Under the pieces are notes generated by a model. That model worked only from the letters and a program-made list of their open reading frames with translations, did no database searches and was not told the DNA's origin. From Escherichia phage vB_EcoS_HdK1: a DNA stretch of 64,000 nt. Numbering within the stretch: position 1 is the stretch's first letter; each line of letters opens with the position of its first letter. The position numbers were made by a program, and so were the translations under genes. The DNA is taken from sequence record MK373794.1; one strand, given 5' to 3'. Positions 1-64,000 of the stretch are shown piece by piece.

Positions 1-105
1 TTTATATAAATACACACATATACACATTTTTACCTTATTTTTCATGCACTTACCTCCTTTCATTTCGTATATTAAGCGACAATATACGAGCAATATAAGA
101 AATAT

Positions 106-119
106 TTGTTGCGCAACAA
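106..119. repeat. Perfect 14-bp palindrome TTGTTGCGCAACAA in the non-coding control region (second copy at 60798..60811)
   Basis: Read directly from the sequence; lies in the ~1.07-kb non-coding region spanning 60336..60692 and 1..678. Confidence 0.6.
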
Positions 120-617
120 CGAGGCGCTCACAAGCTCGCGCACGCGCATAATGCGGGCACGCGGTCTAACACAAAAGAAAATTGAATTGCAAGCGATTTT
201 TGCTGAGGTAACTCTCGAAGCGAAAGCGATTTGCGAGTTTGAAATTTTGTAGCCCGAAAACGATTCTATTTTATGGTATAAATGTCGGATTTTTCGGTGA
301 AAGGTGGCTTTTCGGTGAGGTTGGGTGGCTGGGATCGGTGTAACTGGTAGCCCATAAAGCGAAAATAGCCGCGAAAACGGGGCACGCAGCGCGATTAAAT
401 GGTTGGATCAGTGTAAGGGTGGCGGTGAGGGGGCGAAAATGCCGCAAAATCGCTTACAGGGATGCAGGGAGTGGGCCGCTGTAAGGGCGTATAAGGCGAT
501 TAAATTGGAGTCTATGGTAATGTATGGAAGATGGATTTAGGCTCTTAGAGCGCGAATGGTGGAGCTATGGGTGAGGAATATGTGGTCAGCAGGGTAGCGC
601 GGGAGGTTATGCAGGTA

Positions 618-660
618 CAAAAACGAAAGCGCCCCGTTGGACTTCAACAGGGCGCGGATT
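618..660 (-). terminator. Rho-independent terminator ending the leftward early operon
   Basis: GC-rich inverted repeat GCGCCC..GGGCGC directly downstream of the stop of the 679..927 gene; on the minus strand it is followed by a T-rich tract. Confidence 0.55.
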
Positions 661-678
661 GTATAATGCTTTTAGAAG

Positions 679-927
679 TTATTTACTAGTTAATAATACC
701 GCCCAGGTATTATCTGGAAGCGTACCAACTCCGAGTATCTTAAACTGAAGCGACTTGTTCTGCATGTTGTAGTTGTCGAGTAACTCCTGGGCAGCCGCAG
801 CAGCGTTCGCTTCACCGTTCAGGTTGTAGTCGTTTGCAGTTATTGCACACATACCGAGACCGACCGCTTTGAAGCGCATACCTTTGGATTGAGTCGGTGC
901 AAGTGCTTTAACATGGATAGCGTTCAT
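679..927 (-). CDS. Hypothetical early protein, 82 aa (paralog family A)
   Basis: ORF track; shares an AAAA(Q/E)EL..F(K/E)ILG/SGG..P(D)..(W/Y)A pattern with the 1458..1703 product. Confidence 0.5.
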   Translation of the reverse strand: MNAIHVKALAPTQSKGMRFKAVGLGMCAITANDYNLNGEANAAAAAQELLDNYNMQNKSLQFKILGVGTLPDNTWAVLLTSK

Positions 928-956
928 ATTATTTATCTCCGTTACAATTTGAAAGG

Positions 957-1220
957 TTAGCAGTTTTTTAACAGGTTGATGAAGCCCACCAGCGTGGACG
1001 CTGTTGCAACCAGGCGGCCCATAGTATGCAGTTCCGCGTAAACTTTACCGTCGTCAAACACAGTTAAATAAACGTTAAGACCATTGCAACGGACGCGATA
1101 TTTGCGCGAGTTATTACCAAAAGTTTCCAGCTCTGCGGTGATAGTCGCAAGATTAGCTATACGTTTGCCGATAATGCGGCGAGTGATAGTGGACTGGTTT
1201 AATACTGTAGACATAATCAT
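957..1220 (-). CDS. Hypothetical early protein, 87 aa (paralog family B)
   Basis: ORF track; N-terminal motif STITRRIIGKRI matches SQITKRIIGKRL of the 2529..2835 product; AGAGG ribosome-binding site upstream. Confidence 0.5.
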   Translation of the reverse strand: MIMSTVLNQSTITRRIIGKRIANLATITAELETFGNNSRKYRVRCNGLNVYLTVFDDGKVYAELHTMGRLVATASTLVGFINLLKNC

Positions 1221-1245
1221 TTCCTCTGTTAACTATGCGAAGTGC

Positions 1246-1274
1246 ATATTATTGCCCACTGTTACTATGGGCAA
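1246..1274 (-). promoter_or_regulatory. Sigma70-like promoter (minus strand: -35 TTGCCC, 17-bp spacer, -10 TAATAT) overlapped by an inverted repeat (candidate operator)
   Basis: Hexamers and spacing read from the reverse complement; inverted repeat TTGCCCA-N9-TGGGCAA at 1252..1274 covers the -35 box and spacer; lies 26 bp upstream of the 957..1220 start. Confidence 0.45.
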
Positions 1275-1282
1275 TGTATATG

Positions 1283-1447
1283 TCACTCAGCGGACACATA
1301 TTCTAACGCTTCTGATAGTGTAGCGAAGTAACCATCGCTCACCAGATTAATAGCGTACTCAAGTTGATCGCGGGTCAGGTTGCGAAACTTGTTACGGATG
1401 TGATAGCAACGACCGCGATAAATAACCTGGAAATAGTTGCGTTCCAT
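1283..1447 (-). CDS. Hypothetical small protein, 54 aa
   Basis: Internal ATG of the 1283..1603 track ORF preceded by AAGGGG; the longer track ORF would overlap the neighbouring gene. Confidence 0.4.
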   Translation of the reverse strand: MERNYFQVIYRGRCYHIRNKFRNLTRDQLEYAINLVSDGYFATLSEALEYVSAE

Positions 1448-1457
1448 AATTATCCCC

Positions 1458-1703
1458 TTATGCAACGATGAACGCGTAACCGCTTTGATCCGGGAGTTCA
1501 CCACCGGAAAGAATTTCAAACTCAACGCCCGCTTTATCGCTGAACTTTTTGATAAGCTCTTCCGCTGCGGCGCGGTGGTTGCCGTAAACACCAAGATCGT
1601 CACGCCACGTGATAGTCAAGGAGCCGTTCCAACCTGTTGCTTTTACGCGCGGGTTACGGGTGGCAGTCGGGTTCATGAATTTTGTGATGATAGCTTGAGC
1701 CAT
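1458..1703 (-). CDS. Hypothetical early protein, 81 aa (paralog family A)
   Basis: ORF track; paralogous to the 679..927 product. Confidence 0.5.
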   Translation of the reverse strand: MAQAIITKFMNPTATRNPRVKATGWNGSLTITWRDDLGVYGNHRAAAEELIKKFSDKAGVEFEILSGGELPDQSGYAFIVA

Positions 1704-1708
1704 GATAA

Positions 1709-1894
1709 TTACTCCGGTAAAATTACAGTGACGTTAATATTTGCAAGGCGAGCGCACTCGCGGAAACCTTTTACATAAGCATCCATTTCGTCATAGGATG
1801 CGAAAGTTGCGTCCGGGACTGGTCCGTTGTTAATATTCACGCAATATTCGTGTTCGTCCAGGTCAACCCAACAAGTCAGAACGATAGTTTCCAT
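1709..1894 (-). CDS. Hypothetical small protein, about 61 aa
   Basis: Internal ATG (METIVL..) preceded by GGAGGG; acidic, Cys-containing. Confidence 0.4.
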   Translation of the reverse strand: METIVLTCWVDLDEHEYCVNINNGPVPDATFASYDEMDAYVKGFRECARLANINVTVILPE

Positions 1895-1972
1895 ATTATT
1901 TGCCCTCCGTATAATACAGACCCGCAACTATTGGAGCTCCGAAAACTAAGAAAGCTAATAAATAGAACATAA

Positions 1973-2452
1973 TTAGTTACCCCCTTTATTGTTGAGCCCG
2001 TTGAATTTACGCCATGCGTAGAATTCAATCGTTGCATTATTAATATTCCAACCATTAGCTTTCGCAAGGTCACGGACGTTACCAATAGTTGGCACACCAT
2101 CAGGCAACATATTATCCAGGGCATTCCAAACGTCTGCGCATTTACCTTTAATCGGGCGACGAACCCCGTTGCGCGTTTCGCTGCGCGTTTTGCTCTTGGC
2201 TGGAGCGACCGGAGCTTGTTGTGTGGTCACTTCCACGACAGTCGCTTTATCAGCTTCCACCAGATCGCTAGCTGCCTTATTAACCGCGCTTTCGCTGTAC
2301 CAGTAGCGACCACCGTCTTCGTGCGGTTCCTGGTGAATAAAGCTATTTGCTGTCGCAGTGTCCACATCCAGAACCTTTTTTAAGGCACGGCGAGCGTTAG
2401 ACATAGTGGCGAAGAAGCGAGCGTCTTTTGCTACGCGAGTGATAGTAACCAT
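1973..2452 (-). CDS. Hypothetical early protein, about 159 aa
   Basis: ORF track; start placed at the ATG preceded by GGAGAT; no recognisable catalytic motif. Confidence 0.45.
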   Translation of the reverse strand: MVTITRVAKDARFFATMSNARRALKKVLDVDTATANSFIHQEPHEDGGRYWYSESAVNKAASDLVEADKATVVEVTTQQAPVAPAKSKTRSETRNGVRRPIKGKCADVWNALDNMLPDGVPTIGNVRDLAKANGWNINNATIEFYAWRKFNGLNNKGGN

Positions 2453-2492
2453 TGTGAATATCTCCATGTTGTTCTAGCGGATTGCTAGTGGG

Positions 2493-2513
2493 AGCCCACT
2501 GTTACAATGGGCA
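2493..2513. repeat. Second copy of the conserved inverted-repeat element GCCCACTGTTAC(A/T)ATGGGCAA
   Basis: Near-identical to 1252..1274; both sit in intergenic gaps between leftward early genes. Confidence 0.55.
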
Positions 2514-2528
2514 ACCATTAGCACGCTA

Positions 2529-2835
2529 TTATTGTTGAATAGCTTTATCTATCATTGCGATGAAGCAGAACACAGACCAAAGGCTATTCGCTTGGCATAC
2601 TGCGCGACCATACATTACGCTATAAGAGCTGACAGTACCGTCCTCGTTAATGCGAATATATAACGCGGTGCTGGAATACTTTTCGTTGCCCGGGAGCATT
2701 ACTAAATACTCGTCGAAACCCCAATCCCCGTCGACTTTTTCCGCAGTAAGGCCCAGTTGGTGCAGTCGCTTGCCAATAATGCGCTTAGTAATCTGAGATT
2801 GGGACATGGAACGCGGTAAGTAGATAATGGACATA
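2529..2835 (-). CDS. Hypothetical early protein, about 102 aa (paralog family B)
   Basis: ORF track; start placed at the ATG preceded by AAGGGAG; paralogous to the 957..1220 product. Confidence 0.5.
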
Positions 2836-2909
2836 ATGCAATCTCCCTTCGGGTGAGGCGGGCGCGGAACCCGTGTCCCGCTTAACAACCCCCTTAACCC
2901 TACACAGTT

Positions 2910-2938
2910 ATAGTATGACAACGGGGTATCAGATGCAA
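2910..2938 (-). promoter_or_regulatory. Sigma70-like early promoter for the leftward operon (minus strand: -35 TTGCAT, 17 bp, -10 TACTAT)
   Basis: Hexamers and spacing read from the reverse complement, about 75 bp upstream of the first leftward gene. Confidence 0.4.
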
Positions 2939-3014
2939 CTATTATCTGCAATATTTTAGAACTTTTTTAGTTGTGTTTCATAATAATAACATCCGGGACT
3001 ATGCGGTAGATGGT

Positions 3015-3088
3015 GTGCCGGAAATACCAGGTAGCGCGAGCGTGCCGAAAATACCAGGTAACAGCACGCGCCGAACATACCAGGTAGC
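3015..3088. repeat. Three tandem ~27-bp iteron-like repeats (core ATACCAGGTA) followed by an AT-rich tract; candidate origin or protein-binding array (second copy 63707..63780)
   Basis: GTGCCGGAAATACCAGGTAGC / GTGCCGAAAATACCAGGTAAC / CGCCGAACATACCAGGTAGC read directly; AT-rich stretch at about 3130..3230. Confidence 0.55.
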
Positions 3089-3476
3089 ACATACATAGAC
3101 AGCACATAGTGGGCAGGTGGATAGTAACAGATGCAATTATACTGGACGGTACAGTATAGTCATGTAATAGATAGCATACTAATTAAATAAAAAATAATAA
3201 CGCGTGTAACAATAAACAACGTTACAGTAGAGCGCGCAACAGTCACATGACGTAACAATCACCTCACTGACGATCACGGGACGTTATAGTAACGCCGCGG
3301 GGCGGCTCTTAGATCTCTGCCAAGGATTCTAGACGTAAACATTGAATCGCCACTAGACTATTTACATCACAACCTCACTCCTCACACAATAATACATAGA
3401 ATTTAAATCCGTATATAAATACTCGAGATAGTATCTACATATTCGAGGATGAGTGCTCAATCATTGTAGGTTATAA

Positions 3477-3956
3477 ATGCGTATCAATTGGTGTGATTAT
3501 TTCTCTTACGAAGATGGTAGACTTTACTGGAAGGCCAGTAGAGGAAGAATACGAGTAGGTTCAGAAGCCGGAAGCGAGGACCAACAAGGTTACATTGTGG
3601 TCAGGTTAAACGGGAAAGATTATAAAGCCCACCGCATCATTTGGGAAATGCACTATGGGCCGATACCAGAAGGAATGGAAGTTGACCACATTTGGCATAA
3701 CCGAAAAGATAACCGGATTGAGAATCTGCGGTTAGTGACGCGTACAGGTAATGGGCGTAATCAGTCTAAATTTGCGACAAATACATCAGGTGTAACTGGT
3801 GTGAATTGGAATAGCCGGGCTGGTAAATGGAGAGCGGAAATTTATGTTGATGGAAAGCATATATCTCTTGGTTTATTCACAATCTTTAATGATGCTGTCT
3901 TAGCGCGTAAATCGGCCGAGGCTAAGTATGGTTTCCATAAAAATCATGGCGAGTGA
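3477..3956 (+). CDS. HNH endonuclease with a C-terminal AP2-like DNA-binding domain (homing-endonuclease type)
   Basis: HNH motif region AHRIIWEMHYGPIPEGMEVDHIWHNRKDNRIENLRLV, then a GVTGV..W.A.I pattern typical of AP2 domains. Confidence 0.8.
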   Translation: MRINWCDYFSYEDGRLYWKASRGRIRVGSEAGSEDQQGYIVVRLNGKDYKAHRIIWEMHYGPIPEGMEVDHIWHNRKDNRIENLRLVTRTGNGRNQSKFATNTSGVTGVNWNSRAGKWRAEIYVDGKHISLGLFTIFNDAVLARKSAEAKYGFHKNHGE

Positions 3957-4016
3957 GCATGTTAATCAACTTGCGTATCCTGTTATAGTTATTCCGTTAA
4001 CGTTAAAGGGGTTTAT

Positions 4017-12953: not shown

Positions 12954-14071
12954 ATGTCTAAAATTCTGTCAGCTCCGATGCTTAATTTGCGAGCTACCAA
13001 TTCAATTCTTCTGTCTGCTGTTCGTCGTGGTGCAATCACTGAACTTGCAGATGTTATCGTTCCAGAGATCTTCGTACCGTATGTGCAGAACCGCACAACT
13101 GAAAAGTCCCGACTGATCCAGTCTGGTGCTATTGAGATTTCTGAGCGTCTTAACGCTGCATTGATGGGTGAAGGTACTACCTTTAACCAGCGTTTCTTCA
13201 AAGATCTGGATCGTGACGAAGAAAACGTTTCAAGCGCAAGCGATTCAACCGATTCTACTCCTGGTGGTATCAAATCTGGGCGTGAAATTCAGATCCGTCT
13301 GTCCCGTAACCATTCCTGGGGTTCTGCGGACCTGCTGGACAGCCTGATCTCCCCGGACCCGCTGGATGCTATCATTAACTTAGTGGCAAGCTACCGTCAG
13401 AGCCGTCTGCAACGTGCATTCGTTGCAACTGTCAGTGGTGTGTTTGCTATGAACGCCGCTGCTCTCCGGTTGGTTCCGGTGATAAGAAGTCTACCCATGT
13501 TCAGAACGATATGACCCATGATATCTCTGGTTCATCCTTCACTGATGGTGTGACTAACTTCAACCCGGCCGGTGTTATCCTGGCGGCTGGTACTATGGGT
13601 GACTCCCTGAACGACCTGTCCATGATGATGGTTCACAGTGTGGTTTACCAGCGTATGCAGCTGATGAACCTGATCGACTTCATCCCGGATGCCCGTGCTG
13701 AAGTAATGATCCCAACTTACATGGGCCGTGAAGTTATCGTTGATGATATGATGCCTCACGATAGCGGTAAGTACGAAACCTGGCTGGTCGGTCGTCGTGG
13801 TGCATTCCAGTTAGGTGTTGGTTCACCGAAAGTTCCTGTTGAAACTGAACGTAAACCTGCGTCCTACAAAGGTGGCGGTTCTGAAATCCTGTTCCACCGC
13901 TGGGAAAACATCATTCACCCTGTCGGTCACGCATGGGTTGGTACTGCTGCTGAAGGTGGCCCGGATAACGCCGCTCTGAAGACTGCTGCCAACTGGGCTC
14001 GTGTATTCCCTGAGCGTAAACAGATTAAGATTGCTCGCCCTGATCACTCGCGAACACGCTTAATGCTTTAG
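12954..14071 (+). CDS. Major capsid protein, split into two frames by an apparent frameshift near 13455..13510
   Basis: Track ORFs 12822..13514 and 13511..14071 are contiguous in different frames; alternate frame reads VGSGDKKSTHVQNDMTHD across the junction; position after scaffold; flanked by terminators. Confidence 0.7.
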
Positions 14072-14625: not shown

Positions 14626-15298
14626 TGATGAAAGACAAGATCATTGAAGGGCTTCGTAAACTCAACGTTGAGAATGACAATCATTGGACTGCCGATGGCC
14701 TGCCTAAAATTGAAGCATTGAAGTTTACAGTTGGCCCGTCCGTCACGCGAGAAGATGTCAATTCTGTTGCGCCTGGGTTCACTCGTTTCAAATCCTGTAA
14801 TTGAGGACGTCGAACATGAAGAAAAGCATGACACTTCCTCATTGCAGGAAACCGAACAGACGGAAGTTGTTGCAGATACCGACAATGCACAATATGAGTC
14901 CTTATCTAAGGCTGAAGCAGATAAGGAAACTGTTAACGGTAAATCGATTGTCACTACGCGAGTAGCTTTAGAAGTCAACGTGAGCGATGCAGTTAAAGCA
15001 ATGCTCAAAGATATTCCAGATATTGACTTTGACACTGTTTCTGTGGAAGAGCTTAAAGAATATGAAAAAGTTCTTTTCGGAACAAGTCAACGCAGACAAC
15101 CAGATGTTATCTGCAATGCACGAACTTGTTGAATCTCGTGCTAAACTGTACGCAAAAGTCAACACTGAAATTGAACGTCGTAAGCCTAAGACCGAGCTGG
15201 CTCACACGTTAGCATCTTTCCGCGATCAGATGGCACAAATCCCACATGTAGTCAATCAGCCTCGTATGGTTGTTCGTAACGGTATTCGCACTCGTTAA
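14626..15298 (+). CDS. Hypothetical structural protein, fragmented by two apparent frameshifts (near 14790 and 15075)
   Basis: Three consecutive frames each read as plausible protein (MMKDKIIEGL.., ..NPVIEDVEHE.., ..EQVNADNQML..); the second junction lies in a GAAAAAGTTCTTTTC homopolymer context. Confidence 0.4.
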
Positions 15299-31492: not shown

Positions 31493-32071
31493 TGTCTTTT
31501 GAAATGAGTAATGAAGACCAGACTGTAACTGTGTACGACTACTCCAATGATACGGGGCGAATATGTGGGAACCCGTGAAGCGTATGTGGTGGCCAACACA
31601 GGTCTTCCAGCATGTTGTACTGATATGGAGCCTCCAGTGGCTCCAGAAAATCATGTGGCAGTATTTAGACCGGAAAGTCAGGTATGGATTCTGCGTGAAG
31701 ACCATCGAGGGAAAGTTGTATATGATAAAGATACAGGACTTCCTTTAGTGATAACCACAATAGGATCTCTTCCGGATAATGTAACCTATATTGCTCCCGA
31801 TGGTGAACACATGAAGTGGAACGGCGATATGTGGGTAAACGATCCGGACGCACAACATGCTAAGTCGGTTGCGGATGCAGCACAACATAAAACGGATCTT
31901 CTTAATTTAGCAGATTATAAAATCAGTATTCTGCAGGATGCTGTGACTTATAATCTAGCTACTGACGAAGAAAGTTCGATGCTTGACTCCTGGAGAAAGT
32001 TTCGCGTACTTGTCAACCGTATAAACGAAAACAATCCACAGAATATTATCTGGCCTGAGTCTCCAGAATAA
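31492..32071 (+). CDS. Tail fibre assembly protein (Tfa-like chaperone), with an apparent frameshift near 31555
   Basis: ATG overlapping the fibre stop (TAATG); N-terminal frame [22 protein letters not shown] continues in the frame of track ORF 31547..32071. Confidence 0.65.
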
Positions 32072-36282: not shown

Positions 36283-37271
36283 AGACGAAATCCTACAATT
36301 ACCCCACGTAGATTTTCACCATAAAAAATAATAGGAGTTGAAAGACCCCTTTCGTCCTTGTCATTGAAACGAGAAGCATCCCAATCCGTTGCAAGTCCTT
36401 TCAACTGCATAATAAGATCTATATTATACACGCCAATTGACTTAGATTCACGGAACATTGCACTAGCACCATCCAACTCGTTGTAATGTGTGCGTACAAC
36501 ACCATTTTCCATGTAAATACGCCCATCCCGCTCACAGAACGGTTTTATCTTTTCTAAGCAATTAAAAAGCTCAGTATCAAGCGTATAAACGTTGGACCCC
36601 TTTTCTGTACGTTCAATTATCTTATCAATATTAGGCCACTTTAATTCCAGCAATTGTGTACGCAACCAGCAACCGTCTTCGTAGTGGAATGTCATGCTGG
36701 TATCTGTACACTGAATTCTTACTGGTGGCTTTTTAATACGCAATAATTCTTTGATGGCCATACGTGGCACAACACAATCCACAGGGAATACAGCACCGAA
36801 CCAATATTGTATAATACTAGCGTTGTTGGTCGCGTACATGCTGCCCTGTTTTACCAGCACGCCGCAAGACCACGGGCGGGAAGCATCGTCGCTTATAAAT
36901 GGCGTTACGCGGCTTAAACCGTTGAGAAAAAGCTGACCGTCTATTTCGTGAATTGTTCCTTCTGGCTCTACGTGTGCAGTTGGTTTCTGAAGAGTATCCA
37001 CACTGACCTTAAAGCCACCAGACTTAATGCTCAACTTACCGTTCGCTAACATTGTCATTTGTACAGCTTCGTCACATGCTGCAATAGCCTTCAACATTGG
37101 TTCAGCTTTAGGAGTACAGTCAATATTCAGCGGCACTGGACTACACAATGAAATAGTTCCGTTAAACCCGCGCACAGTACCGTCAACAATACGGAAGTGA
37201 GTTAAACCTTCCTGAAGTTCTTTCTTAGCTACAGAACCCTGAACAAACTTTAAAGCATCAAGTAAATCCAT
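36279..37271 (-). CDS. Possible sliding-clamp-like processivity factor
   Basis: 330 aa, translationally coupled to the polymerase; residue spacing loosely parallels beta-clamp N-terminal conservation. Confidence 0.35.
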   Translation of the reverse strand: MDLLDALKFVQGSVAKKELQEGLTHFRIVDGTVRGFNGTISLCSPVPLNIDCTPKAEPMLKAIAACDEAVQMTMLANGKLSIKSGGFKVSVDTLQKPTAHVEPEGTIHEIDGQLFLNGLSRVTPFISDDASRPWSCGVLVKQGSMYATNNASIIQYWFGAVFPVDCVVPRMAIKELLRIKKPPVRIQCTDTSMTFHYEDGCWLRTQLLELKWPNIDKIIERTEKGSNVYTLDTELFNCLEKIKPFCERDGRIYMENGVVRTHYNELDGASAMFRESKSIGVYNIDLIMQLKGLATDWDASRFNDKDERGLSTPIIFYGENLRGVIVGFRL

Positions 37272-38234
37272 AAGTAACCTTATTCGTCAAATAAATCCTG
37301 GAGGCGTTCGTTGAACTTCCCATTGTGGTTAGCAAGAATCATAGCGTTGACCACACCATACGCCCATAAATTATATGCAGCGCGTGATTCGTATATCGTT
37401 GAAAGTCGTTCGTATGTGAAACCTGACTCCTCTAAGTAGCGGTAGAACGTTATTTTGTTCTATTTCTGAAAGATTACAGATATGTTGTCCTTGATAGTGG
37501 CGTGACGGTGATTTTTCGGATACCTGCATTGGGCCCCACTTTGGAGTTTCAATAGCACCAAACGCCGCAGATTGAATCCAGGAGGATGAGTCACAGGAGT
37601 ACCACGGGTAACGCTCCATAAGCGGACGGGACGTAATACCAAAACCATGTACTTTAATCTTAGCGCGTCCACTACCGTCTACAAGGTGTTTATCCCATAC
37701 CCTGTCCAACCATACCTGGAGTTGTTGTGTACTCGCTCCAACAAGACCACCAAGAGTGATGTATTCATAATTTCGCACATAATGGTCCAGGTATTCAAAA
37801 GGTTCGCCGGCGTGGAAGCATGGTAAAGGTCTTACACCCCTGGCTTCCATCTCTTCCTGGTTGCGCCACGTTTGAAGTGGATCCCCGATACCATCGAGTA
37901 CAGAAGCCATAAGCGAACCATCTTCTACACGAATAATATCTATGTTTCGTTGGATGTAATCACAGTATTCTTTAACCGATAACGTAACTCCCAAAGTGTA
38001 AGCTGAGAACGCCCCGGAGTCGAGGAATATCTTGGCCCCATCGGCACGCATGGCATCAACATAGGATTGTTTTCCAACGTAGTGCCAGGATTCAAGAATG
38101 TTTGGAATATTCTCGACAACACGTTTTTCTTGTTCGTTGAGTTTAACATAGCGGTTCATTCCTGGTTTATAGCTGTTCGTATATACGGCAGCCATATAAA
38201 TCTGAAAGGTATAGTTGATATCTTGTCTGTGCAT
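37265..38234 (-). CDS. dpdA: DpdA-like 7-deazaguanine DNA transglycosylase (TGT-like fold), with an apparent frameshift near 37440
   Basis: TGT-like fold assigned from overall pattern (KIFLDSGAFS, VHGFG); the C-terminus of track ORF 37371..38234 reads as junk, while the alternate frame continues as KITFYRYLEESGFTYERLSTIYESRAAYNLWAYGVVNAMILANHNGKFNERLQDLFDE to a stop at 37265; junction at an AAAA run. Confidence 0.6.
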
Positions 38235-38303
38235 TGTTCACCTAACAAATAAGCGCCCGTAGGCGCTTATTATATTAAAGATAATGTATGATTCGCAAAT
38301 CAG

Positions 38304-38954
38304 TTACTTTTTACACGCTTCAAGAAATTCCCGACGCCATGTGTCACCAGTTACGTCCGGTAATACACCATCACCCAATGCAGTACGTCCGCGGAATGCT
38401 TTAGTGATGGTTGAGCTTCCGCATACCTGTTTAATACCGCGCGACTCCATGCACATATGTTTTGCATCGATGTAGACACACACAGCTTTCGGCTCTAAAT
38501 GGTCACGGATAGCGTCCGCAATTTGATTAGTCAGACGTTCTTGGACTTGCAAACGTCGAGCAAAAGCATCAACCACACGAGATAACTTACTAAGGCCAAC
38601 AATTTTTCCATTCGGGACATACCCGACCACCGCATGACCAATAATAGGAGCCATATGATGCTCACAATGACTGTAGACAGGGATATCACGGACGATGACC
38701 ATTTCATCACAGTTTTCCCCACCATCCTCAAACGTTTTGAACAGGGATGCAATATCGACAGAATAACCCCCGAACCACGTTTCAAATGCTTTAGCGACGC
38801 GCAATGGAGTTTCAACTAGACCTTCACGCAAGTCATCGCCACCTTCAATCAACTTTAAAATCTTTTCGATACTGTGCGAAATTTCTGCTCGGTTTGTCAT
38901 CTTTGTAAATTCATTCATGGTTTGCAGTTTCCTTGTGTGGTCAATTATTTGCAA
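38304..38954 (-). CDS. folE: GTP cyclohydrolase I (FolE)
   Basis: Signature CEHH (..YSHCEHHMAPI..) and flanking conserved segments. Confidence 0.85.
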   Translation of the reverse strand: MQIIDHTRKLQTMNEFTKMTNRAEISHSIEKILKLIEGGDDLREGLVETPLRVAKAFETWFGGYSVDIASLFKTFEDGGENCDEMVIVRDIPVYSHCEHHMAPIIGHAVVGYVPNGKIVGLSKLSRVVDAFARRLQVQERLTNQIADAIRDHLEPKAVCVYIDAKHMCMESRGIKQVCGSSTITKAFRGRTALGDGVLPDVTGDTWRREFLEACKK

Positions 38955-39481
38955 TAGTTAACATGGCATTTAGATGTTTCTTCAATGGTACATTCTACCA
39001 GTTCAACACCATATTGGTCAAGCAGTTGAGGACCAATTACGTCAACCATATATGCAGCTAAGTTTTCCGCAGTTGGGTTGAATGGTAAAGCTACCAAAGA
39101 ATTAAAGAAAGGATCATAATCTTCATCCGTCACTAAATTGTTCTCGCGCGCAAACTTAGTCGATGCAACAACAATGAGCGAATTAATCAGGCTGTCTTGT
39201 TCCCAATGCAGGAACTTATGATCCCAATTATCTTCCAGCCACTGGCAGAGCGTAGTTTTAACCACACTAAAGTCGATAACGCGGCCTACATCGTCCAGGG
39301 ATCCTTCTAAAGCAAATCCACTTACAGACTTAACGTAACCTTCCGACAATGTTTTCTTTGGTGCGACTTTAAAATGGAACTTATAGTTGTGACCATGAAG
39401 ATGGCGACATTTGCTTTCGTGACCTACAACACGATGACCAGCGCAAATCTCGTGTGTGAAACGAATAACAGTGTAACCCAT
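38945..39481 (-). CDS. queD: 6-carboxy-5,6,7,8-tetrahydropterin synthase (QueD)
   Basis: C-x3-H-G-H motif (CRHLHGHNY) characteristic of the QueD family. Confidence 0.7.
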   Translation of the reverse strand: MGYTVIRFTHEICAGHRVVGHESKCRHLHGHNYKFHFKVAPKKTLSEGYVKSVSGFALEGSLDDVGRVIDFSVVKTTLCQWLEDNWDHKFLHWEQDSLINSLIVVASTKFARENNLVTDEDYDPFFNSLVALPFNPTAENLAAYMVDVIGPQLLDQYGVELVECTIEETSKCHVNYCK

Positions 39482-39483
39482 TT

Positions 39484-40900
39484 TTATTCCTCGTTTTCGT
39501 ATTTAATAACTTCTTGTGCGTTATTAATATTAAACGCAGTCCGGCGCATCATGCAAGGGCCACAAGTACCGCAATGCAAATCCCCGTTACGGTAACAGCT
39601 CCAGGTGTGCTCCAACGGGGCCCCTAAACGCAGACCTGTAGCGACAATCTCGTGCTTCATTAAGTTACCTACAGGCATGAGCACTTCAACGCGCTTACCG
39701 TCCCCTACAGCGAACGGTAACACCTGATTAAAGCGATTAATAAACTCAGGTTCGTTGTCCGGATAGGCTCCAGCTTCTTCTAGGTTGTTACCAAGAACAA
39801 TATAGTCGAAACCGTTAGCTTCTGCGTATGCAGTAGCAACAGAAAGCATCACAAGGTTACGAGCTGGAACCCATTCATGCGCGAACTCAGCGCCTTCTTC
39901 ACCGCCCGCAATTGCAGCATCTTGGTCAAATAACGGGCTATCTTTTTTATCGTAAATTGGGATTGGGAATTCAACTAATGGAACTTCCATCACTTCCGCA
40001 ATTTTACGAATAGCCTTCAACTCGTTAGTTTCTGCACGACAACCATACTGGAAGTTAATTAGAGTGACATCTAAACCATTGGACTTACACATTTGAGCTG
40101 CTACTGTGCTGTCCATACCACCACTGGCGACAACTAACGCACGTTGAGTTTGCTTATTTGGAATAAGATCAACTTCATTACATACATCAGTGGATGTGAC
40201 CACATTACATGAATAAGGCTTCAGCATTTGCTTAATAGCGCGTGTTGGTAGCATGTCTTCCTGGCTGGCGAAATACATACCAGTATCAGTCTTACCAATC
40301 CAGATTGGACGATAATTACATGCTGTAAACACACATCCCGGAAAGGAATCATGTGTCGCAAGGATTGCGAAGCTACCTTTTAATTTGCGAACAACTTCAT
40401 GAAACACACTGTACAGGTAATTAAAGTCAGACAAACACATTTCATCTGCTGAAAGTGTACATTCCGCTAACTGTTCAACAATCGCAGCACTATCAATCTT
40501 AGTCTGTAGGGCATAGGTACGAAGGTCTTTATCGTTCGCAATAGTACCGTTATGAACAATAGTCCAACCATCCATATGATACGGTTGCTGGTCCCACTCA
40601 TTCTTGTCAACGACCCACTCTGTAGTCGGTTCAGCGCGAGCGTTACCAATCATTGTGAAGCTACCAATAGCTCCAGCATGAGATACAATGCGCCCAACTT
40701 TAACAAGACGTTCCAGCGATGTTTTCTTACCGACACTAACAATACGTTGCGGGTGCATACTGTGGTCACCATGCGTAAAGCGTACACCAAGACCATCACG
40801 ACCACGGTTGATACTAGCTTTAATAAGATCCTCAATGTCGTTACGGATAATAAGACTTTCAGGTTGACCGTTAGTAATAACACCAAAGATAGAGCACATA
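39484..40900 (-). CDS. queC: Glutamine amidotransferase (class II, N-terminal Cys) fused to 7-cyano-7-deazaguanine synthase (Gat-QueC)
   Basis: MCSIFG N-terminus typical of Ntn amidotransferases (start placed at the Met-Cys preceded by AAGGAAGG); QueC PP-loop SGGMDS and C-terminal Zn cluster C..CGTCGPC. Confidence 0.8.
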
Positions 40901-41647
40901 TTATTTACCTTCCTTAACCATTTCAATTTCACGCTCAACGGATGCAATAATATCGTTGAGGTCTTCCAGTAAGTCTTTATGACCGCGCTCACCCGCACAC
41001 AGCACTTTCTTCAGTGCATGTTGCATGGGCCCACTGGTTACATTGAATGCTTTAATTACGTCGTACACGTCAACCCATACATCAATTTCAATTGGGCTAC
41101 CATTAATGTCATGGGATTCAAAAGTTTTAATTTTGCGCATATATTTATTCGGACGTGGAGCTTTAATCTCCTGGATACAACCCTTGTCGATAAACGTTTC
41201 TTTAATAAATACTTCAGGATTACCTTCTTTGTCACGATCAACGTTAAAGACATTCGTAAGTAGATCGTCCATGATACTGGTTAATTTCTGAGTAGACGTC
41301 GTATGCTTCACGGTATTCACTTCCTCTTCTGCTTTCTGACTTCTTCTGGCAGAAGTATTGATACGCCATTTGTAAAGTGCATTACGTGGAGGCGTTACAT
41401 GCGTGTTGTAGACCGTCTTTAAGTTCATAAGATCGTGTCCATCCATACCTTCAACAAAGACAGTGAGTGCAGGGCAACTATCGTTCAGAACATCCACCAT
41501 ATACCCTTCTCGAATCACAGATGCAAGAGCTGCATGGGACGCAGCCTGAGAAACTGTGGTTACATAATGTTTTACAAATCCGTCTTCATCAAACAGACAC
41601 TGGTTCAACACATTTTCTGGAACGATTTCACCGAGTAAACTGAACAT
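40901..41647 (-). CDS. Hypothetical protein embedded in the 7-deazaguanine cluster
   Basis: 248 aa, tightly packed between the Gat-QueC and QueE genes on the same strand; no motif assigned. Confidence 0.45.
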   Translation of the reverse strand: MFSLLGEIVPENVLNQCLFDEDGFVKHYVTTVSQAASHAALASVIREGYMVDVLNDSCPALTVFVEGMDGHDLMNLKTVYNTHVTPPRNALYKWRINTSARRSQKAEEEVNTVKHTTSTQKLTSIMDDLLTNVFNVDRDKEGNPEVFIKETFIDKGCIQEIKAPRPNKYMRKIKTFESHDINGSPIEIDVWVDVYDVIKAFNVTSGPMQHALKKVLCAGERGHKDLLEDLNDIIASVEREIEMVKEGK

Positions 41648-41720
41648 ACTTATTCATAATAACCTACCTTATTAGTTGAACATACCATGTCTTCTAGCGT
41701 GTGCGTGAGTATGTATAGCT

Positions 41721-42509
41721 TCACTCTACACCTAAATATTTGTGGATCTGCAATTGCACGATGTAATTGTGCTTCATTGCATATTTAACGACAGCTTGAG
41801 CGTTTGCTTTATTAGCATCGTCGTCCTGTTCATCCATAGGTTGAAGATAAATCTTACCTTTAAAGTGTACAGGCGGACGTGCGATAAATGGTGTCGCACG
41901 GTGATCCAGTGCCTGCAACGGTAAACCATCTTCCTCGTTGACGTTTCCGCTTTTCATTACATATTTGAAAGCATCCGCTCGAGCGGAAACGCTAGGGTGA
42001 ACCTTTGCTGCCTTAGGACTACATACTACCACACAGTTATAGTTGAGTTCACGCGGGATAGGCATAGTTCCGTTAGTTTCAACCTGTACGCGATAACCTT
42101 TCATATCAATAAGGTAATTGATAAAATTAGCAACTTCAGGTTGACGGAAAGGTTCTCCGCCAGTAATGACAACTAAGTTAGTCTTGGCTTCACCAGTAAC
42201 ACGGACAATCTCTTGCCAGATGTCACCGTGATTCATCTTCTTACGATTGGACGTGTAGTTTGTATCACATCCTGGGCATTGCAAATTACAACCAGCTAAT
42301 CGAACAAACACGGCAGGTTGACCACAAAACGGGCCTTCGCCTTGAATGGTATGAAAAATGGAATGCACGTCAAGAATACCACGTTCACGAACTAACTTCT
42401 CAGGTTCCTGAGTATTAATAATTTTCATATGATTTCCAAATTTGGCTTGAGCCCAGTGGTGGGCGATAATGGCTTGTGCAAACATTTGAACCTCGGGGTA
42501 AGATAACAA
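41721..42509 (-). CDS. queE: 7-carboxy-7-deazaguanine synthase (QueE, radical SAM)
   Basis: Motif RLAGCNLQCPGCDTNYT matches the QueE Cys-x3-Cys-x2-Cys-type iron-sulfur cluster signature. Confidence 0.8.
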   Translation of the reverse strand: MLSYPEVQMFAQAIIAHHWAQAKFGNHMKIINTQEPEKLVRERGILDVHSIFHTIQGEGPFCGQPAVFVRLAGCNLQCPGCDTNYTSNRKKMNHGDIWQEIVRVTGEAKTNLVVITGGEPFRQPEVANFINYLIDMKGYRVQVETNGTMPIPRELNYNCVVVCSPKAAKVHPSVSARADAFKYVMKSGNVNEEDGLPLQALDHRATPFIARPPVHFKGKIYLQPMDEQDDDANKANAQAVVKYAMKHNYIVQLQIHKYLGVE

Positions 42510-54636: not shown

Positions 54637-57201
54637 ATAACTTAATAACTTCGTTCATTCTCTCAATATCTACCAAATAACACTTCATTCTCGGTGGTGT
54701 AAACTCTGCGCCGAAGAAATTTGAAAAGTCCATTGGCCTCATCTCGGTAAGAACTTCCATAGACATCAAACCATAGATTGTATTGTCTATGACCTGTAGG
54801 ATGTTGTCATTTCTTGTCTGTTTAAAAGCCTTGAACTGGCGACATACTGTGCATAGATCACTCCTTGTGACAATAAATGCGTCCTTAAACATGGGAAACC
54901 GTTTATATACACCAGCTTTAACTTCACCATCCAAGAACTTCTTAATGGAGTTCAGCATTATCTTCTCACGACTTGTACTGTCCGTAGAACCAATCTGCCC
55001 ACTGTTACGCTTCTCTAAGAAACGCTCGTTACCCTGATCGATAAATGACTCAGCCCAACGATAATGTTCCATAGTGACAACAGGACGCTCACTGTTATCT
55101 GCAACAGCAAGAAGAGAAGCTATACGCAATACCTTCAACGCCTTCCTTGTGTACATCTGACGAATTACTTCGTCTTGCACCTGCTCACCATCATTGCCGC
55201 TGTTCAGGAACTTCGCAACAATATTATCAAGATTATCAAACGCTTCGTGTACCTCTGCTTCCATTTCAACATAACACGGAGCAGTCCCTGACATAATACG
55301 CACAGCTTGTTTATAGATAGCTCCAATAGTGCGCAGTATTGCTTCTGGATATTCCAGGAGCATACTCTTATTCATCAATGGGCGGTTAGCTGTACATTCC
55401 CATGCGATAATACGGGACATGAAACCACTCGACATCATGCGGTCATCTACGTTCCCGTAAAATTCATCTGGTGTTGTTTCACCTGCAAAACTATACGCCT
55501 TAACCTTACCGCCAGCAGTCGTATTATCTTTACTAGAGTGCTTTGAACCACCAGAGAAAGCATAGAAATGCCCCTTGTCATAAAGGGAAAGCATTTCATC
55601 CATAATGTCTTTAGCTTTACCGACTTCCATCTTACCGTTACGGAAAAAATGCACCGACTTCAGTCTTATAGTTAATGGATGAGCCACAAGACATAACGGA
55701 CGTATCCATTATGACATCCTTGCGCAATGCAGCATCAGACGCATAGGTACTTGTATCCAAGACACGTTCGATACCAAATATCTGCTGACCGTCTTGACCG
55801 CCATAATTGGATACTTGAGAAAAAAAAGAATAGTTTCAATGTTGGAGCGAAACGCTTCTTTACCAATACCAGAACGTGCAATTAGTACAAAGTAGTTATT
55901 CAAACCACTTCGTGTGACTGTGTTCCACGCCTTACCGCACATACCACTAAATAAAGCAAGCGCAGACAGAATACTAATGTCTTTAATAGGCAACAAGCTC
56001 GCTTTATACATATTACGCGCAACCTCGCCCATAAAGCCCGGAGGCCAAGCCAAACCGTCTGCCTGCTCTTCAGTGTAATTACCATCTGTAGTCAACACTT
56101 CTTCAGGTGGGCGTTCTGGTGTAGTTGCTTGACGTAGTTTTTCCGTGCGCTCTATAGCTGCATTAACGTTATTCTGAACTATCTGCATAAGTCCCATAGA
56201 TTTAACATGGGCATCGTAGCGATAGTTGCGAATCATTCTATCCAGGTGGTACGGACGTTTAATTTTTTCACCAGGCATACGACGGGGAATCATCGTAACG
56301 GCTACTCATTGGTGAATACATGAATAGACGTCTTACCTGGAAATTGTACTTACTCTTAAAGCAAAGAAAGTCAATTAATGCAAATTCTGCTTCAGACTGA
56401 GAAGGGAAACAACGTTCACCGATTAGAAGTATCAACTTCTTCAGCTCTCCAACGACCCTCCCATAGCTGCTTAAACAATGTTCCGTTTTCTTGTTCGCAC
56501 AACTGAATATAGACATCCTGGTCTTCCATTGCATATGGGTCGTTACTAAAATCTTCTTCAGTAAGTTCCAGCATTTGGAAGCCATCAGACTCATTAATCT
56601 CACTCATCTCAGACATAAGTTGGATGAATGAGATTAGCGATATACCCTTCGCTTTCACTGCCTGGAGCACCAGACACAGTGCGCGGGAGTAAAGTAACAT
56701 CCCAGTGATCCCCTGTACAGATAATAAAACGATACTGGGAATACACTTCCACACCGTCACGGCGCTTACCAGCCTGAGGGGATGGAATAAATCCATGTGT
56801 GCAACCCATCACCGCTTCTGGAAATTTCCGTATAGCTATGGAAACGATTCAACAATCTTCTTATATCGCTCACCAGCAACTTTCTTTTCCATTTCAGACA
56901 TGGTATCTTTAATGTCCATGTCGATACAACAGAACGGGTCACTTGGAAGTAGATAGAAACCTAAACGCAAGTTATGACCAATCTCGTTATAATAACGAAC
57001 GCAGCGTTCAGCATCTTCAAAAGACATAAGTAAATGCAGGTTAGACGGTTTCTTATCATTACCGTCTTTACGAAGTGGGACCATATCCCCTAAATCATCG
57101 TCCCATACATAAGGTTGTTTTTCTGATGATGTACCCGGATGGAAACCGCAGACAGCCCACTGTTCGTATTGTTTAATTTCTTGAGGAAAAAGTTCCAGCA
57201 T
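54635..57201 (-). CDS. Putative bifunctional DNA primase-polymerase (AEP-type N-terminal domain plus C-terminal domain), fragmented into at least five ORFs by apparent frameshifts
   Basis: Track ORFs 54635..55687, 55709..56293, 56416..56796 and 56836..57201 plus alternate-frame readings form one continuous coding region; AEP-like motifs CIDMD and RSGDGLH; frame changes at plus-strand A6 (55645..55650) and A8 (55821..55828) runs. Confidence 0.45.
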
Positions 57202-59446: not shown

Positions 59447-60335
59447 TTCCTCCAGATATCACGCGATTCTTTAATACGGATGTTATACCGTATAAGTTGC
59501 TGCATAACTTTATGCAGGTCATCGAGATGCTTCCTTAAACGAAGACGTTTCTTGATAGCCCACAAGTTCTTCATATCCGTTCGTTGGAGATCCTCCCTTA
59601 AATACAATGAAAAGTCAGTCTGGTGATCTAAGATAAATTGGATACGCATCAAAGTATCCGACTTACGATAATCAGGATACCACTTAGGAAGCACATCTTG
59701 TTCGCCAATCATCTTACGCTCCAAACTGATCAATGTATTCAATGAGCTCTTGCAATTCTTGCTGTAACTGCACATTACCACTATTATTCGTCTGAAGTCT
59801 AACGAGGCGTTCCTTGATATGTGCAATGTGGTTAGTGCCCATCCGACGCTTCTGTACATCACACCAGCGAACAACACCATCTTCAATATATGCACGACGG
59901 GCTTTACCACGCGGGTATCGCAGCGGCGCCGAATTTCACACTTATCGCCCACCCACTTAAAGCCCAGGATCATAACAGCGTTACCTTCCGTATCAGGACA
60001 CACGTCAAAACAACTGTTGAACCCTTTACTGCGCATATACTCGTCGAGCGGAATCACCTTATCAGGCGACAACCATTGATACCCGAAGTAAATATCGACA
60101 GTGAACACCGTACCCAACATCGGAGCCGACCAGCACATATACATCCGCCCGTCATCCAACTTCTTGACCGCATTCGGCCCGCAACACGAGGCCAGCCGCC
60201 TTCCACGCTTTGACCACATTAATCGTGTTGTCCTGCTCCTGAAAGATTGCGTCTGCCTGCATATATGTAGGCGCGTCCCAGCCCGAACATTTCCTTTACA
60301 TGAGCATTAGTGATTTTAACCTTTTGATTGCGCAT
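59443..60335 (-). CDS. First gene of the leftward replication-block operon; hypothetical, with apparent internal frameshifts
   Basis: ATG at 60335 preceded by AGGTGAGG; protein-like reading switches frame at least twice before joining track ORF 59443..60219. Confidence 0.3.
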
Positions 60336-60545: not shown

Positions 60546-61309
60546 CAGCAATATACGAAACGGCGAAGCGAAGTGTATGAAAAATAAGGGAAAATTTCGA
60601 GAGTTGGGAGGTTTGTAGTGATTTATATTATTTATAAAGGGGTCTCGTGGGGTCGTCAGTAGACAACTCAAAAATAAAAAATCTTTATAAAATTTATATA
60701 AATACACACATATACACATTTTTACCTTATTTTTCATGCACTTACCTCCTTTCATTTCGTATATTAAGCGACAATATACGAGCAATATAAGAAATATTTG
60801 TTGCGCAACAACGAGGCGCTCACAAGCTCGCGCACGCGCATAATGCGGGCACGCGGTCTAACACAAAAGAAAATTGAATTGCAAGCGATTTTTGCTGAGG
60901 TAACTCTCGAAGCGAAAGCGATTTGCGAGTTTGAAATTTTGTAGCCCGAAAACGATTCTATTTTATGGTATAAATGTCGGATTTTTCGGTGAAAGGTGGC
61001 TTTTCGGTGAGGTTGGGTGGCTGGGATCGGTGTAACTGGTAGCCCATAAAGCGAAAATAGCCGCGAAAACGGGGCACGCAGCGCGATTAAATGGTTGGAT
61101 CAGTGTAAGGGTGGCGGTGAGGGGGCGAAAATGCCGCAAAATCGCTTACAGGGATGCAGGGAGTGGGCCGCTGTAAGGGCGTATAAGGCGATTAAATTGG
61201 AGTCTATGGTAATGTATGGAAGATGGATTTAGGCTCTTAGAGCGCGAATGGTGGAGCTATGGGTGAGGAATATGTGGTCAGCAGGGTAGCGCGGGAGGTT
61301 ATGCAGGTA

Positions 61310-61352
61310 CAAAAACGAAAGCGCCCCGTTGGACTTCAACAGGGCGCGGATT
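61310..61352 (-). terminator. Second copy of the early-operon terminator (same as 618..660)
   Basis: Within the terminal duplication. Confidence 0.55.
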
Positions 61353-61370
61353 GTATAATGCTTTTAGAAG

Positions 61371-61619
61371 TTATTTACTAGTTAATAATACCGCCCAGGT
61401 ATTATCTGGAAGCGTACCAACTCCGAGTATCTTAAACTGAAGCGACTTGTTCTGCATGTTGTAGTTGTCGAGTAACTCCTGGGCAGCCGCAGCAGCGTTC
61501 GCTTCACCGTTCAGGTTGTAGTCGTTTGCAGTTATTGCACACATACCGAGACCGACCGCTTTGAAGCGCATACCTTTGGATTGAGTCGGTGCAAGTGCTT
61601 TAACATGGATAGCGTTCAT
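61371..61619 (-). CDS. Duplicate of the 679..927 gene (paralog family A)
   Basis: Identical translation in the ORF track. Confidence 0.5.
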   Translation of the reverse strand: MNAIHVKALAPTQSKGMRFKAVGLGMCAITANDYNLNGEANAAAAAQELLDNYNMQNKSLQFKILGVGTLPDNTWAVLLTSK

Positions 61620-61648
61620 ATTATTTATCTCCGTTACAATTTGAAAGG

Positions 61649-61912
61649 TTAGCAGTTTTTTAACAGGTTGATGAAGCCCACCAGCGTGGACGCTGTTGCA
61701 ACCAGGCGGCCCATAGTATGCAGTTCCGCGTAAACTTTACCGTCGTCAAACACAGTTAAATAAACGTTAAGACCATTGCAACGGACGCGATATTTGCGCG
61801 AGTTATTACCAAAAGTTTCCAGCTCTGCGGTGATAGTCGCAAGATTAGCTATACGTTTGCCGATAATGCGGCGAGTGATAGTGGACTGGTTTAATACTGT
61901 AGACATAATCAT
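61649..61912 (-). CDS. Duplicate of the 957..1220 gene (paralog family B)
   Basis: Identical translation in the ORF track. Confidence 0.5.
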   Translation of the reverse strand: MIMSTVLNQSTITRRIIGKRIANLATITAELETFGNNSRKYRVRCNGLNVYLTVFDDGKVYAELHTMGRLVATASTLVGFINLLKNC

Positions 61913-61974
61913 TTCCTCTGTTAACTATGCGAAGTGCATATTATTGCCCACTGTTACTATGGGCAATGTATATG

Positions 61975-62139
61975 TCACTCAGCGGACACATATTCTAACG
62001 CTTCTGATAGTGTAGCGAAGTAACCATCGCTCACCAGATTAATAGCGTACTCAAGTTGATCGCGGGTCAGGTTGCGAAACTTGTTACGGATGTGATAGCA
62101 ACGACCGCGATAAATAACCTGGAAATAGTTGCGTTCCAT
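61975..62139 (-). CDS. Duplicate of the 1283..1447 gene
   Basis: Within the terminal duplication. Confidence 0.4.
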   Translation of the reverse strand: MERNYFQVIYRGRCYHIRNKFRNLTRDQLEYAINLVSDGYFATLSEALEYVSAE

Positions 62140-62149
62140 AATTATCCCC

Positions 62150-62395
62150 TTATGCAACGATGAACGCGTAACCGCTTTGATCCGGGAGTTCACCACCGGA
62201 AAGAATTTCAAACTCAACGCCCGCTTTATCGCTGAACTTTTTGATAAGCTCTTCCGCTGCGGCGCGGTGGTTGCCGTAAACACCAAGATCGTCACGCCAC
62301 GTGATAGTCAAGGAGCCGTTCCAACCTGTTGCTTTTACGCGCGGGTTACGGGTGGCAGTCGGGTTCATGAATTTTGTGATGATAGCTTGAGCCAT
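62150..62395 (-). CDS. Duplicate of the 1458..1703 gene
   Basis: Identical translation in the ORF track. Confidence 0.5.
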   Translation of the reverse strand: MAQAIITKFMNPTATRNPRVKATGWNGSLTITWRDDLGVYGNHRAAAEELIKKFSDKAGVEFEILSGGELPDQSGYAFIVA

Positions 62396-62400
62396 GATAA

Positions 62401-62586
62401 TTACTCCGGTAAAATTACAGTGACGTTAATATTTGCAAGGCGAGCGCACTCGCGGAAACCTTTTACATAAGCATCCATTTCGTCATAGGATGCGAAAGTT
62501 GCGTCCGGGACTGGTCCGTTGTTAATATTCACGCAATATTCGTGTTCGTCCAGGTCAACCCAACAAGTCAGAACGATAGTTTCCAT
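62401..62586 (-). CDS. Duplicate of the 1709..1894 gene
   Basis: Within the terminal duplication. Confidence 0.4.
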   Translation of the reverse strand: METIVLTCWVDLDEHEYCVNINNGPVPDATFASYDEMDAYVKGFRECARLANINVTVILPE

Positions 62587-62664
62587 ATTATTTGCCCTCC
62601 GTATAATACAGACCCGCAACTATTGGAGCTCCGAAAACTAAGAAAGCTAATAAATAGAACATAA

Positions 62665-63144
62665 TTAGTTACCCCCTTTATTGTTGAGCCCGTTGAATTT
62701 ACGCCATGCGTAGAATTCAATCGTTGCATTATTAATATTCCAACCATTAGCTTTCGCAAGGTCACGGACGTTACCAATAGTTGGCACACCATCAGGCAAC
62801 ATATTATCCAGGGCATTCCAAACGTCTGCGCATTTACCTTTAATCGGGCGACGAACCCCGTTGCGCGTTTCGCTGCGCGTTTTGCTCTTGGCTGGAGCGA
62901 CCGGAGCTTGTTGTGTGGTCACTTCCACGACAGTCGCTTTATCAGCTTCCACCAGATCGCTAGCTGCCTTATTAACCGCGCTTTCGCTGTACCAGTAGCG
63001 ACCACCGTCTTCGTGCGGTTCCTGGTGAATAAAGCTATTTGCTGTCGCAGTGTCCACATCCAGAACCTTTTTTAAGGCACGGCGAGCGTTAGACATAGTG
63101 GCGAAGAAGCGAGCGTCTTTTGCTACGCGAGTGATAGTAACCAT
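62665..63144 (-). CDS. Duplicate of the 1973..2452 gene
   Basis: Identical translation in the ORF track. Confidence 0.45.
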   Translation of the reverse strand: MVTITRVAKDARFFATMSNARRALKKVLDVDTATANSFIHQEPHEDGGRYWYSESAVNKAASDLVEADKATVVEVTTQQAPVAPAKSKTRSETRNGVRRPIKGKCADVWNALDNMLPDGVPTIGNVRDLAKANGWNINNATIEFYAWRKFNGLNNKGGN

Positions 63145-63220
63145 TGTGAATATCTCCATGTTGTTCTAGCGGATTGCTAGTGGGAGCCCACTGTTACAAT
63201 GGGCAACCATTAGCACGCTA

Positions 63221-63527
63221 TTATTGTTGAATAGCTTTATCTATCATTGCGATGAAGCAGAACACAGACCAAAGGCTATTCGCTTGGCATACTGCGCGAC
63301 CATACATTACGCTATAAGAGCTGACAGTACCGTCCTCGTTAATGCGAATATATAACGCGGTGCTGGAATACTTTTCGTTGCCCGGGAGCATTACTAAATA
63401 CTCGTCGAAACCCCAATCCCCGTCGACTTTTTCCGCAGTAAGGCCCAGTTGGTGCAGTCGCTTGCCAATAATGCGCTTAGTAATCTGAGATTGGGACATG
63501 GAACGCGGTAAGTAGATAATGGACATA
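63221..63527 (-). CDS. Duplicate of the 2529..2835 gene
   Basis: Identical translation in the ORF track. Confidence 0.5.
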
Positions 63528-63706
63528 ATGCAATCTCCCTTCGGGTGAGGCGGGCGCGGAACCCGTGTCCCGCTTAACAACCCCCTTAACCCTACACAGT
63601 TATAGTATGACAACGGGGTATCAGATGCAACTATTATCTGCAATATTTTAGAACTTTTTTAGTTGTGTTTCATAATAATAACATCCGGGACTATGCGGTA
63701 GATGGT

Positions 63707-63780
63707 GTGCCGGAAATACCAGGTAGCGCGAGCGTGCCGAAAATACCAGGTAACAGCACGCGCCGAACATACCAGGTAGC
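63707..63780. repeat. Second copy of the three tandem iteron-like repeats (same as 3015..3088)
   Basis: Within the terminal duplication. Confidence 0.55.
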
Positions 63781-64000
63781 ACATACATAGACAGCACATA
63801 GTGGGCAGGTGGATAGTAACAGATGCAATTATACTGGACGGTACAGTATAGTCATGTAATAGATAGCATACTAATTAAATAAAAAATAATAACGCGTGTA
63901 ACAATAAACAACGTTACAGTAGAGCGCGCAACAGTCACATGACGTAACAATCACCTCACTGACGATCACGGGACGTTATAGTAACGCCGCGGGGCGGCTC

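Follow-up and report, generated by a model that had tools for sequence, protein, structure and literature searches.

Locus and gene organization

The locus described here holds a dpdA gene on the minus strand of Escherichia phage vB_EcoS_HdK1 (record MK373794.1). The next gene is the sliding clamp, with its ATG at 37269-37271, and directly upstream of dpdA on the same strand lie FolE, QueD, Gat-QueC and QueE, the genes for preQ0/G+ synthesis. The order DNA polymerase, clamp, DpdA, FolE, QueD, Gat-QueC, gp35-like, QueE is common to this DNA and to phage 9g. The window, by which we mean the whole stretch of 64,000 nucleotides that was analysed, is a Nonagvirus genome (phage 9g/JenK1-like, Queuovirinae) of 60,692 bp plus a repeat. 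Table 1 gives the coordinates of the features, as positions in the window.

Table 1. Features at and around dpdA and sites of frame breakage in the window
Feature	Position	Strand	Remarks
dpdA, corrected reading	37280..38234	-	955 nt in the window, including stop TAA 37280-37282
Frame-0 ORF as written	37371..38234	-	ATG at 38234, stop 37371-37373, 287 aa
Displaced native C-terminus, 53 codons (RYLEESGF...LQDLFDE)	37283..37441	-	now in the +1 frame
Extra-base site	37441..37442	-	CC (GG on the plus strand) vs a single C in relatives; alignment column 793
AAAA run	37453..37456	-	not the indel site; relatives have A-A-G-A or equal length
TAG, last alternative-frame stop 5' of the junction	37460..37462	-	5' limit of the two-frame overlap
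Hairpin AAGCGCC-TACG-GGCGCTT with T-rich tail	38268..38251	-	GC-rich, directly after the promoter-like element
Promoter-like TTGCGA-18-TATAAT	38298..38269	-	10/12 consensus matches
Rest of the predicted 7-deazaguanine (dG+) cluster: FolE, QueD, Gat-QueC, gp35-like, QueE	38304..42509	-	all unbroken in frame
Other frame-break positions	6642; 13462-14038; 14786-15074; 15750; 19349; 20222; 21384; 28137; 31554-31770; 42719; 44088; 48447; 55650-56842; 59926-60281		
Frame-broken genes			Rz, major capsid protein, gp07 (twice), head-tail adaptor, gp15, tape measure (twice), tail fibre, tail-fibre assembly, DpdA, gp37, gp38, Sak4, primase, gp66

The closest whole genome is JenK1 (NC_029021), which is about 97% identical in nucleotide sequence and collinear over nearly all 60.7 kb; we found no independent genome at 99% identity or above, the best being JenK1 (about 97%) and IMG/VR contigs (at most 97%). 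JenK1 gp44 (an HNH endonuclease), gp47 and gp75 have no counterpart at the expected places in the window. One stretch that does not align with JenK1 (3330..3958) holds an HNH-like ORF at 3477..3956 on the plus strand, 39% identical to JenK1 gp44; the differences here and at the junction near 50130 look like gain and loss of a mobile homing endonuclease. Positions 1..3308 of the window are the same as 60693..64000, with 0 mismatches. HdSG1 has an exact terminal direct repeat of 3,363 bp over the same genes, and the repeat in the window, instead of being a wrap-around, may be a genuine long terminal repeat.

Searching the JenK1 proteins against the window with tblastn gave a single full-length HSP for each of FolE (99.5% identity), QueD (97.8%), Gat-QueC (99.4%) and QueE (100%), and judged by its sequence the cluster is of the 9g type, for 2'-deoxyarchaeosine (dG+). 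In 9g, dpdA and gat-queC have been shown experimentally to give dG+ and restriction resistance (PMC6884629), with G+ replacing about 25% of G (PMC6884629, PMC10516641). The Gat-QueC ORF called mechanically in the window (39484..40998, minus strand) has 504 aa from a GTG start; the homolog in JenK1, 9g and HdSG1 has 471 aa and corresponds to 40899..39487, and the extra 33 codons are no real extension but simply open frame further upstream, where it overlaps the gp35-like gene. A promoter-like element and a hairpin lie just upstream of the dpdA ribosome-binding site. The promoter scan found 3 such elements with 3.0 expected, so that this match is weak on its own; HdSG1 has a terminator annotated at the place homologous to the hairpin. 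The dpdA gene may thus be transcriptionally apart from FolE, QueD, Gat-QueC and QueE.

The dpdA reading frame as written and as corrected

The frame-0 ORF encodes native protein at residues 1-264 and is out of frame at residues 265-287. This tail of 23 aa, PLLRGVRFHIRTTFNDIRITRCI, has no counterpart in any homolog, in agreement with the earlier note, made from the sequence of the same DNA, which had called it junk-like. The adjacent frame is open from just past the TAG to the TAA (Table 1) and encodes ...RYLEESGFTYERLSTIYESRAAYNLWAYGVVNAMILANHNGKFNERLQDLFDE; its C-terminus is well formed, as had been claimed. The peptide quoted for it was correct over the 53 aa from RYLEESGF to DLFDE, but its first five residues (KITFY) are out of frame, and the stop, which had been placed at 37265, was 15 nt off.

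In JenK1, 9g and HdSG1 dpdA is one CDS of 954 nt and 317 aa. A base-by-base alignment of the window with these three relatives (955 nt vs 954 nt) contains 1 gap column only, at a mean column identity of 98%, and this bears out the claim that a one-base frameshift interrupts the gene. A megablast search with the dpdA region matched 19 phage records, all Queuovirinae, with JenK1 (97.1%), HdSG1 (96.7%) and 9g (96.5%) as the best; the 7 matches that were unbroken and of full coverage span 1010 nt of the record per 1011 nt of query. The match over dpdA and the clamp is split in JenP1, SE1 and SP8, where a further "hypothetical protein" and about 480 more bases separate the two genes; the window, JenK1 and 9g lack this insertion.

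With one C removed, the gene encodes a protein of 317 aa that is 317/317 identical to the DpdA of phage 9g by tblastn, and the same search found 11 records at 99% identity or above. The 9g protein (YP_009032326, "queuine tRNA-ribosyltransferase", NC_024146 3007..3960) is of the DpdA1 subfamily, and the restored protein matches PHROG 887, of the same description, with an E value of 2e-98. On these comparisons the gene belongs to the phage DpdA1 family (TGT superfamily) and, once corrected, would encode the same protein as that of 9g, which upholds its identification as DpdA in the earlier note. What sets the window dpdA apart from that of 9g is the frame-breaking extra C and 34 nucleotide differences, all of them synonymous, of which 31 come before the shift and 3 after it.

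Catalytic and pocket roles have been proposed for D63, D206, S64, F67, D105, H132, G153, G154 and F189 of the DpdA of phage CAjan (Kot et al., PMC7544227). The equivalents in the window, in 9g numbering D72, D215, S73, F76, D114, H141, G162, G163 and F198, are all present, and these nine positions are invariant in 32 close homologs. Across ten more divergent phage DpdAs most of them are invariant or nearly so (G162 and G163 nearly so), with F76 and D114 varying in one or two of the distant proteins; at F76, Streptococcus phage Dp-1 and Edwardsiella phage ZHS carry Y. The predicted model suggests a TGT-type (beta/alpha)8 barrel, although the model is mediocre (pLDDT 65) and was built from a shallow alignment (at least 70% identity). 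The structures of the superfamily, arcTGT (1IQ8), bacterial TGT (3UNT) and bacterial DpdA (7UI4), are only 10-17% identical to the phage DpdA, which is also much shorter. A Pfam scan of the restored protein returned no TGT match and one unrelated match below threshold, sequence searches of the PDB yielded nothing meaningful, whether the query was the single protein or a profile of 10 members, and Foldseek found nothing specific.

Site of the extra base

The window reads CTACCGCTAC across the junction, where the alignment has CTA-CGCTAC or CTG-CGCTAC in JenK1, 9g and HdSG1, and the indel is identical whether the window is compared with JenK1 or with HdSG1. The native protein reads ...SEIEQNNVL before the junction and RYLEESGF... 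after it. The junction had been assigned to the AAAA run near 37440. That run lies further upstream (Table 1), the doubled C being 11 nt downstream of it, and expansion of the run as the cause is ruled out by the alignment, which puts the extra base in the CC. Transcriptional slippage was also rejected, since there is no long run of A or T at the junction.

We also looked for the lesion in public data. A degenerate 27-mer of the frameshifted junction had 0 matches in IMG/VR, JGI metagenome contigs and GTDB genomes, while a 26-mer of the intact junction was found in 7 IMG/VR contigs. The 287-aa product was absent from the indexed public assemblies in a look-up of the exact product.

Conservation of the displaced C-terminus

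We aligned ten phage DpdAs from phages of Escherichia, Pseudomonas, Vibrio, Stenotrophomonas, Burkholderia, Aminobacter, Edwardsiella and Streptococcus, reaching down to 28% identity, and found that they share one C-terminal end, ...LF. The residues G271, R284, N288 and L314, all in the displaced segment, are invariant in the 10 proteins. Comparing both frames of the window with these homologs leaves the annotated tail unmatched and places the displaced C-terminus among features that the homologs share, a check that the earlier note had proposed. A search of 5.8 billion proteins returned 2713 homologs, the best 120 of which have 306-319 aa at a query coverage of 96-100%. The earlier note had also allowed for homologs ending at the same point as the window's frame; there is none among the best 120 of the 2713 or among the ten aligned phage DpdAs. 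The predicted model has four helices at residues 257-314, and the shift would cut the first of them. The CAjan DpdA (Seuratvirus, 69% identical) has the same C-terminal end.

The displaced 53 codons encode protein identical to that of 9g. The change relative to 9g is synonymous only, including at the 3 sites past the shift, which indicates that the full-length frame has been under selection. A real frameshift would keep residues 1-264, with all of the proposed catalytic residues, and exchange the last 53 residues for 23 unrelated ones; the loss of these 53 conserved residues would plausibly inactivate DpdA.

Indels across the record

The window differs from JenK1 by 33 isolated indels, 27 of which recur identically when the comparison is made with the independent genome HdSG1. 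Insertions in the window account for 27/33 and lengths that are not multiples of 3 for 31/33, and 18 of the 20 one-base insertions lengthen an existing base or run. The change from C to CC in dpdA is typical of this set. To follow the consequences for the encoded proteins, the translations of all 86 JenK1 CDS were searched against the window with tblastn, and at least 14 genes showed a change of frame (Table 1), whereas the ORFs of JenK1 are intact throughout. The displaced segments still match the JenK1 proteins at about 95-100% identity; for the tape measure, for example, the values for its three pieces are 99.2%, 99.0% and 99.5%. The primase alone has about 10 indels in 1.2 kb, including an insertion of 5 A at 55820. 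As a control, the same tblastn test on HdSG1 gave 1 frame change; it falls in the tail fibre, for which the HdSG1 annotation has two CDS.

At 31 frame-breaking indels per 60,692 bp, about 0.5 would be expected in a gene of 955 nt. The dpdA event is therefore unremarkable and needs no special explanation. A phage in which the capsid protein, the tape measure and the other listed genes were all broken would be unable to form particles. We also considered, and rejected, a defective phage in genuine decay, as the great majority of substitutions are synonymous and the protein encoded by the displaced segments is still 95-100% identical.

The one-base insertions touch GA or GGC (on the purine strand) in 15 of 20 cases, vs 8.7 expected (binomial p of about 0.005, a post hoc comparison). 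GA and GGC are the target motifs of the CAjan DpdA, and preQ0 lowers the quality of nanopore reads (PMC7544227). Modified guanines might thus have left their mark in the errors of the record, and from this an active DpdA would follow. The site in dpdA, GCGGTAG, lies outside the GA/GGC motif.

Explanations for the extra base

Our preferred reading, to which we give a probability of roughly 0.9, is that the record is a low-accuracy assembly of a Nonagvirus genome, that dpdA is intact in the real phage, and that one spurious C stands in the record. As written, the window has no unbroken dpdA ORF of full length (about 306-319 aa) that includes the conserved C-terminal helices, and we attribute this to the spurious base and not to the phage itself. 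The spurious C would push the last 53 codons of dpdA into another frame, and it would be one of about 30 single-base, mostly base-doubling insertions across the genome. We infer that the extra base arose in sequencing or assembly, not in the phage. The intact DpdA would then act as a DNA guanine transglycosylase, swapping G for preQ0, and Gat-QueC would help to turn preQ0 into dG+. The earlier note likewise held a sequencing indel to be more likely, and the many similar one-base insertions in essential genes of the record add weight to that opinion. Two observations count against an artefact: a single doubled C, not being a long homopolymer, is a less classic context for errors, and the related phage CAjan survives the knockout of dpdA (PMC6884629, PMC7544227), which makes a real mutation biologically possible.

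The first alternative is that a real and very recent one-base insertion occurred in dpdA of the phage stock, with loss of function and unmodified DNA, and that the loss was tolerated during growth on a restriction-poor laboratory host. The CAjan delta-dpdA phage, viable with its DNA unmodified and restriction-sensitive, loses only the modification and the resistance to restriction (PMC6884629, PMC7544227), and the shift removes 53 conserved residues, the four invariant ones among them, which is plausibly inactivating. The CAjan mutant is a clean engineered deletion, and the lesion in the window is a one-base insertion. Against a real insertion, about 30 indels of a similar kind stand in this record, in genes that a phage cannot do without, 0 of the 34 substitutions relative to 9g are non-synonymous, the remainder of the dG+ pathway is intact, and the variant is unique among the public contigs searched. 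Neither relaxed selection nor an independent sighting of the lesion, as would mark a pseudogene, was found (0 non-synonymous and 34 synonymous changes vs 9g), although such a test is blind to a lesion only a few generations old. We regard a real loss of function as very unlikely. To the proposition that the extra C is real, a fresh dpdA frameshift beside an intact pathway that would make the phage either a natural unmodified escape variant or one partially rescued by a +1 slip, we likewise give little credence, and a shade less.

A rescue of that kind, taken by itself, would be ribosomal recoding. A candidate +1-slip site, CUU-AGA-G, lies 9 nt downstream of the insertion (37433-37427, frame 0), where frame 0 reads CCG CUA CUU AGA GGA G. 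With the rare AGA codon next to be read, peptidyl-tRNA-Leu would move from CUU to UUA, and this +1 step would restore the native frame exactly and yield full-length DpdA with RY replaced by PL (VLPLLEESGF vs VLRYLEESGF). We take the site to resemble the CUU-AGG-C site of Ty1 and the CUU-UGA-C site of prfB. However, the two-frame arrangement occurs in no relative, so that the recoding signal is not conserved: the 19 megablast relatives and the ten aligned DpdAs are single ORFs. Nor is an upstream stimulator of the prfB type, resembling a Shine-Dalgarno sequence, evident, the re-pairing from CUU to UUA would be poor for the E. coli tRNA-Leu(GAG), and each of the at least 13 other broken genes would need a separate rescue. 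Programmed frameshifting is accordingly extremely improbable.

Finally, that the 264+23-aa protein is the true active product, a naturally shorter DpdA, can hardly be credited: all of the proposed catalytic and pocket residues (roles from PMC7544227) do lie upstream of residue 264, but no homolog ends there (best 120 of 2713), the C-terminal helices predicted by the model, with the first cut by the shift, carry residues that are invariant in phage DpdAs from Escherichia to Streptococcus hosts, and purifying selection still acts on the displaced codons as read in their native frame.

Implications for annotation and for the phage

The result is mainly one of quality control, in that the record needs polishing before annotation. 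Annotators would otherwise call a truncated DpdA and split capsid, tape-measure and primase genes, with the risk of wrongly inferring a phage that is without its anti-restriction DNA modification. The 9g-type dG+ modification cluster and its mechanism have already been published, and the interruption of dpdA is best filed as not being a real feature of the phage. Should the frameshift prove real, the phage would be nature's equivalent of the engineered CAjan delta-dpdA mutant, of modest interest for how readily such phages lose their modification in culture.
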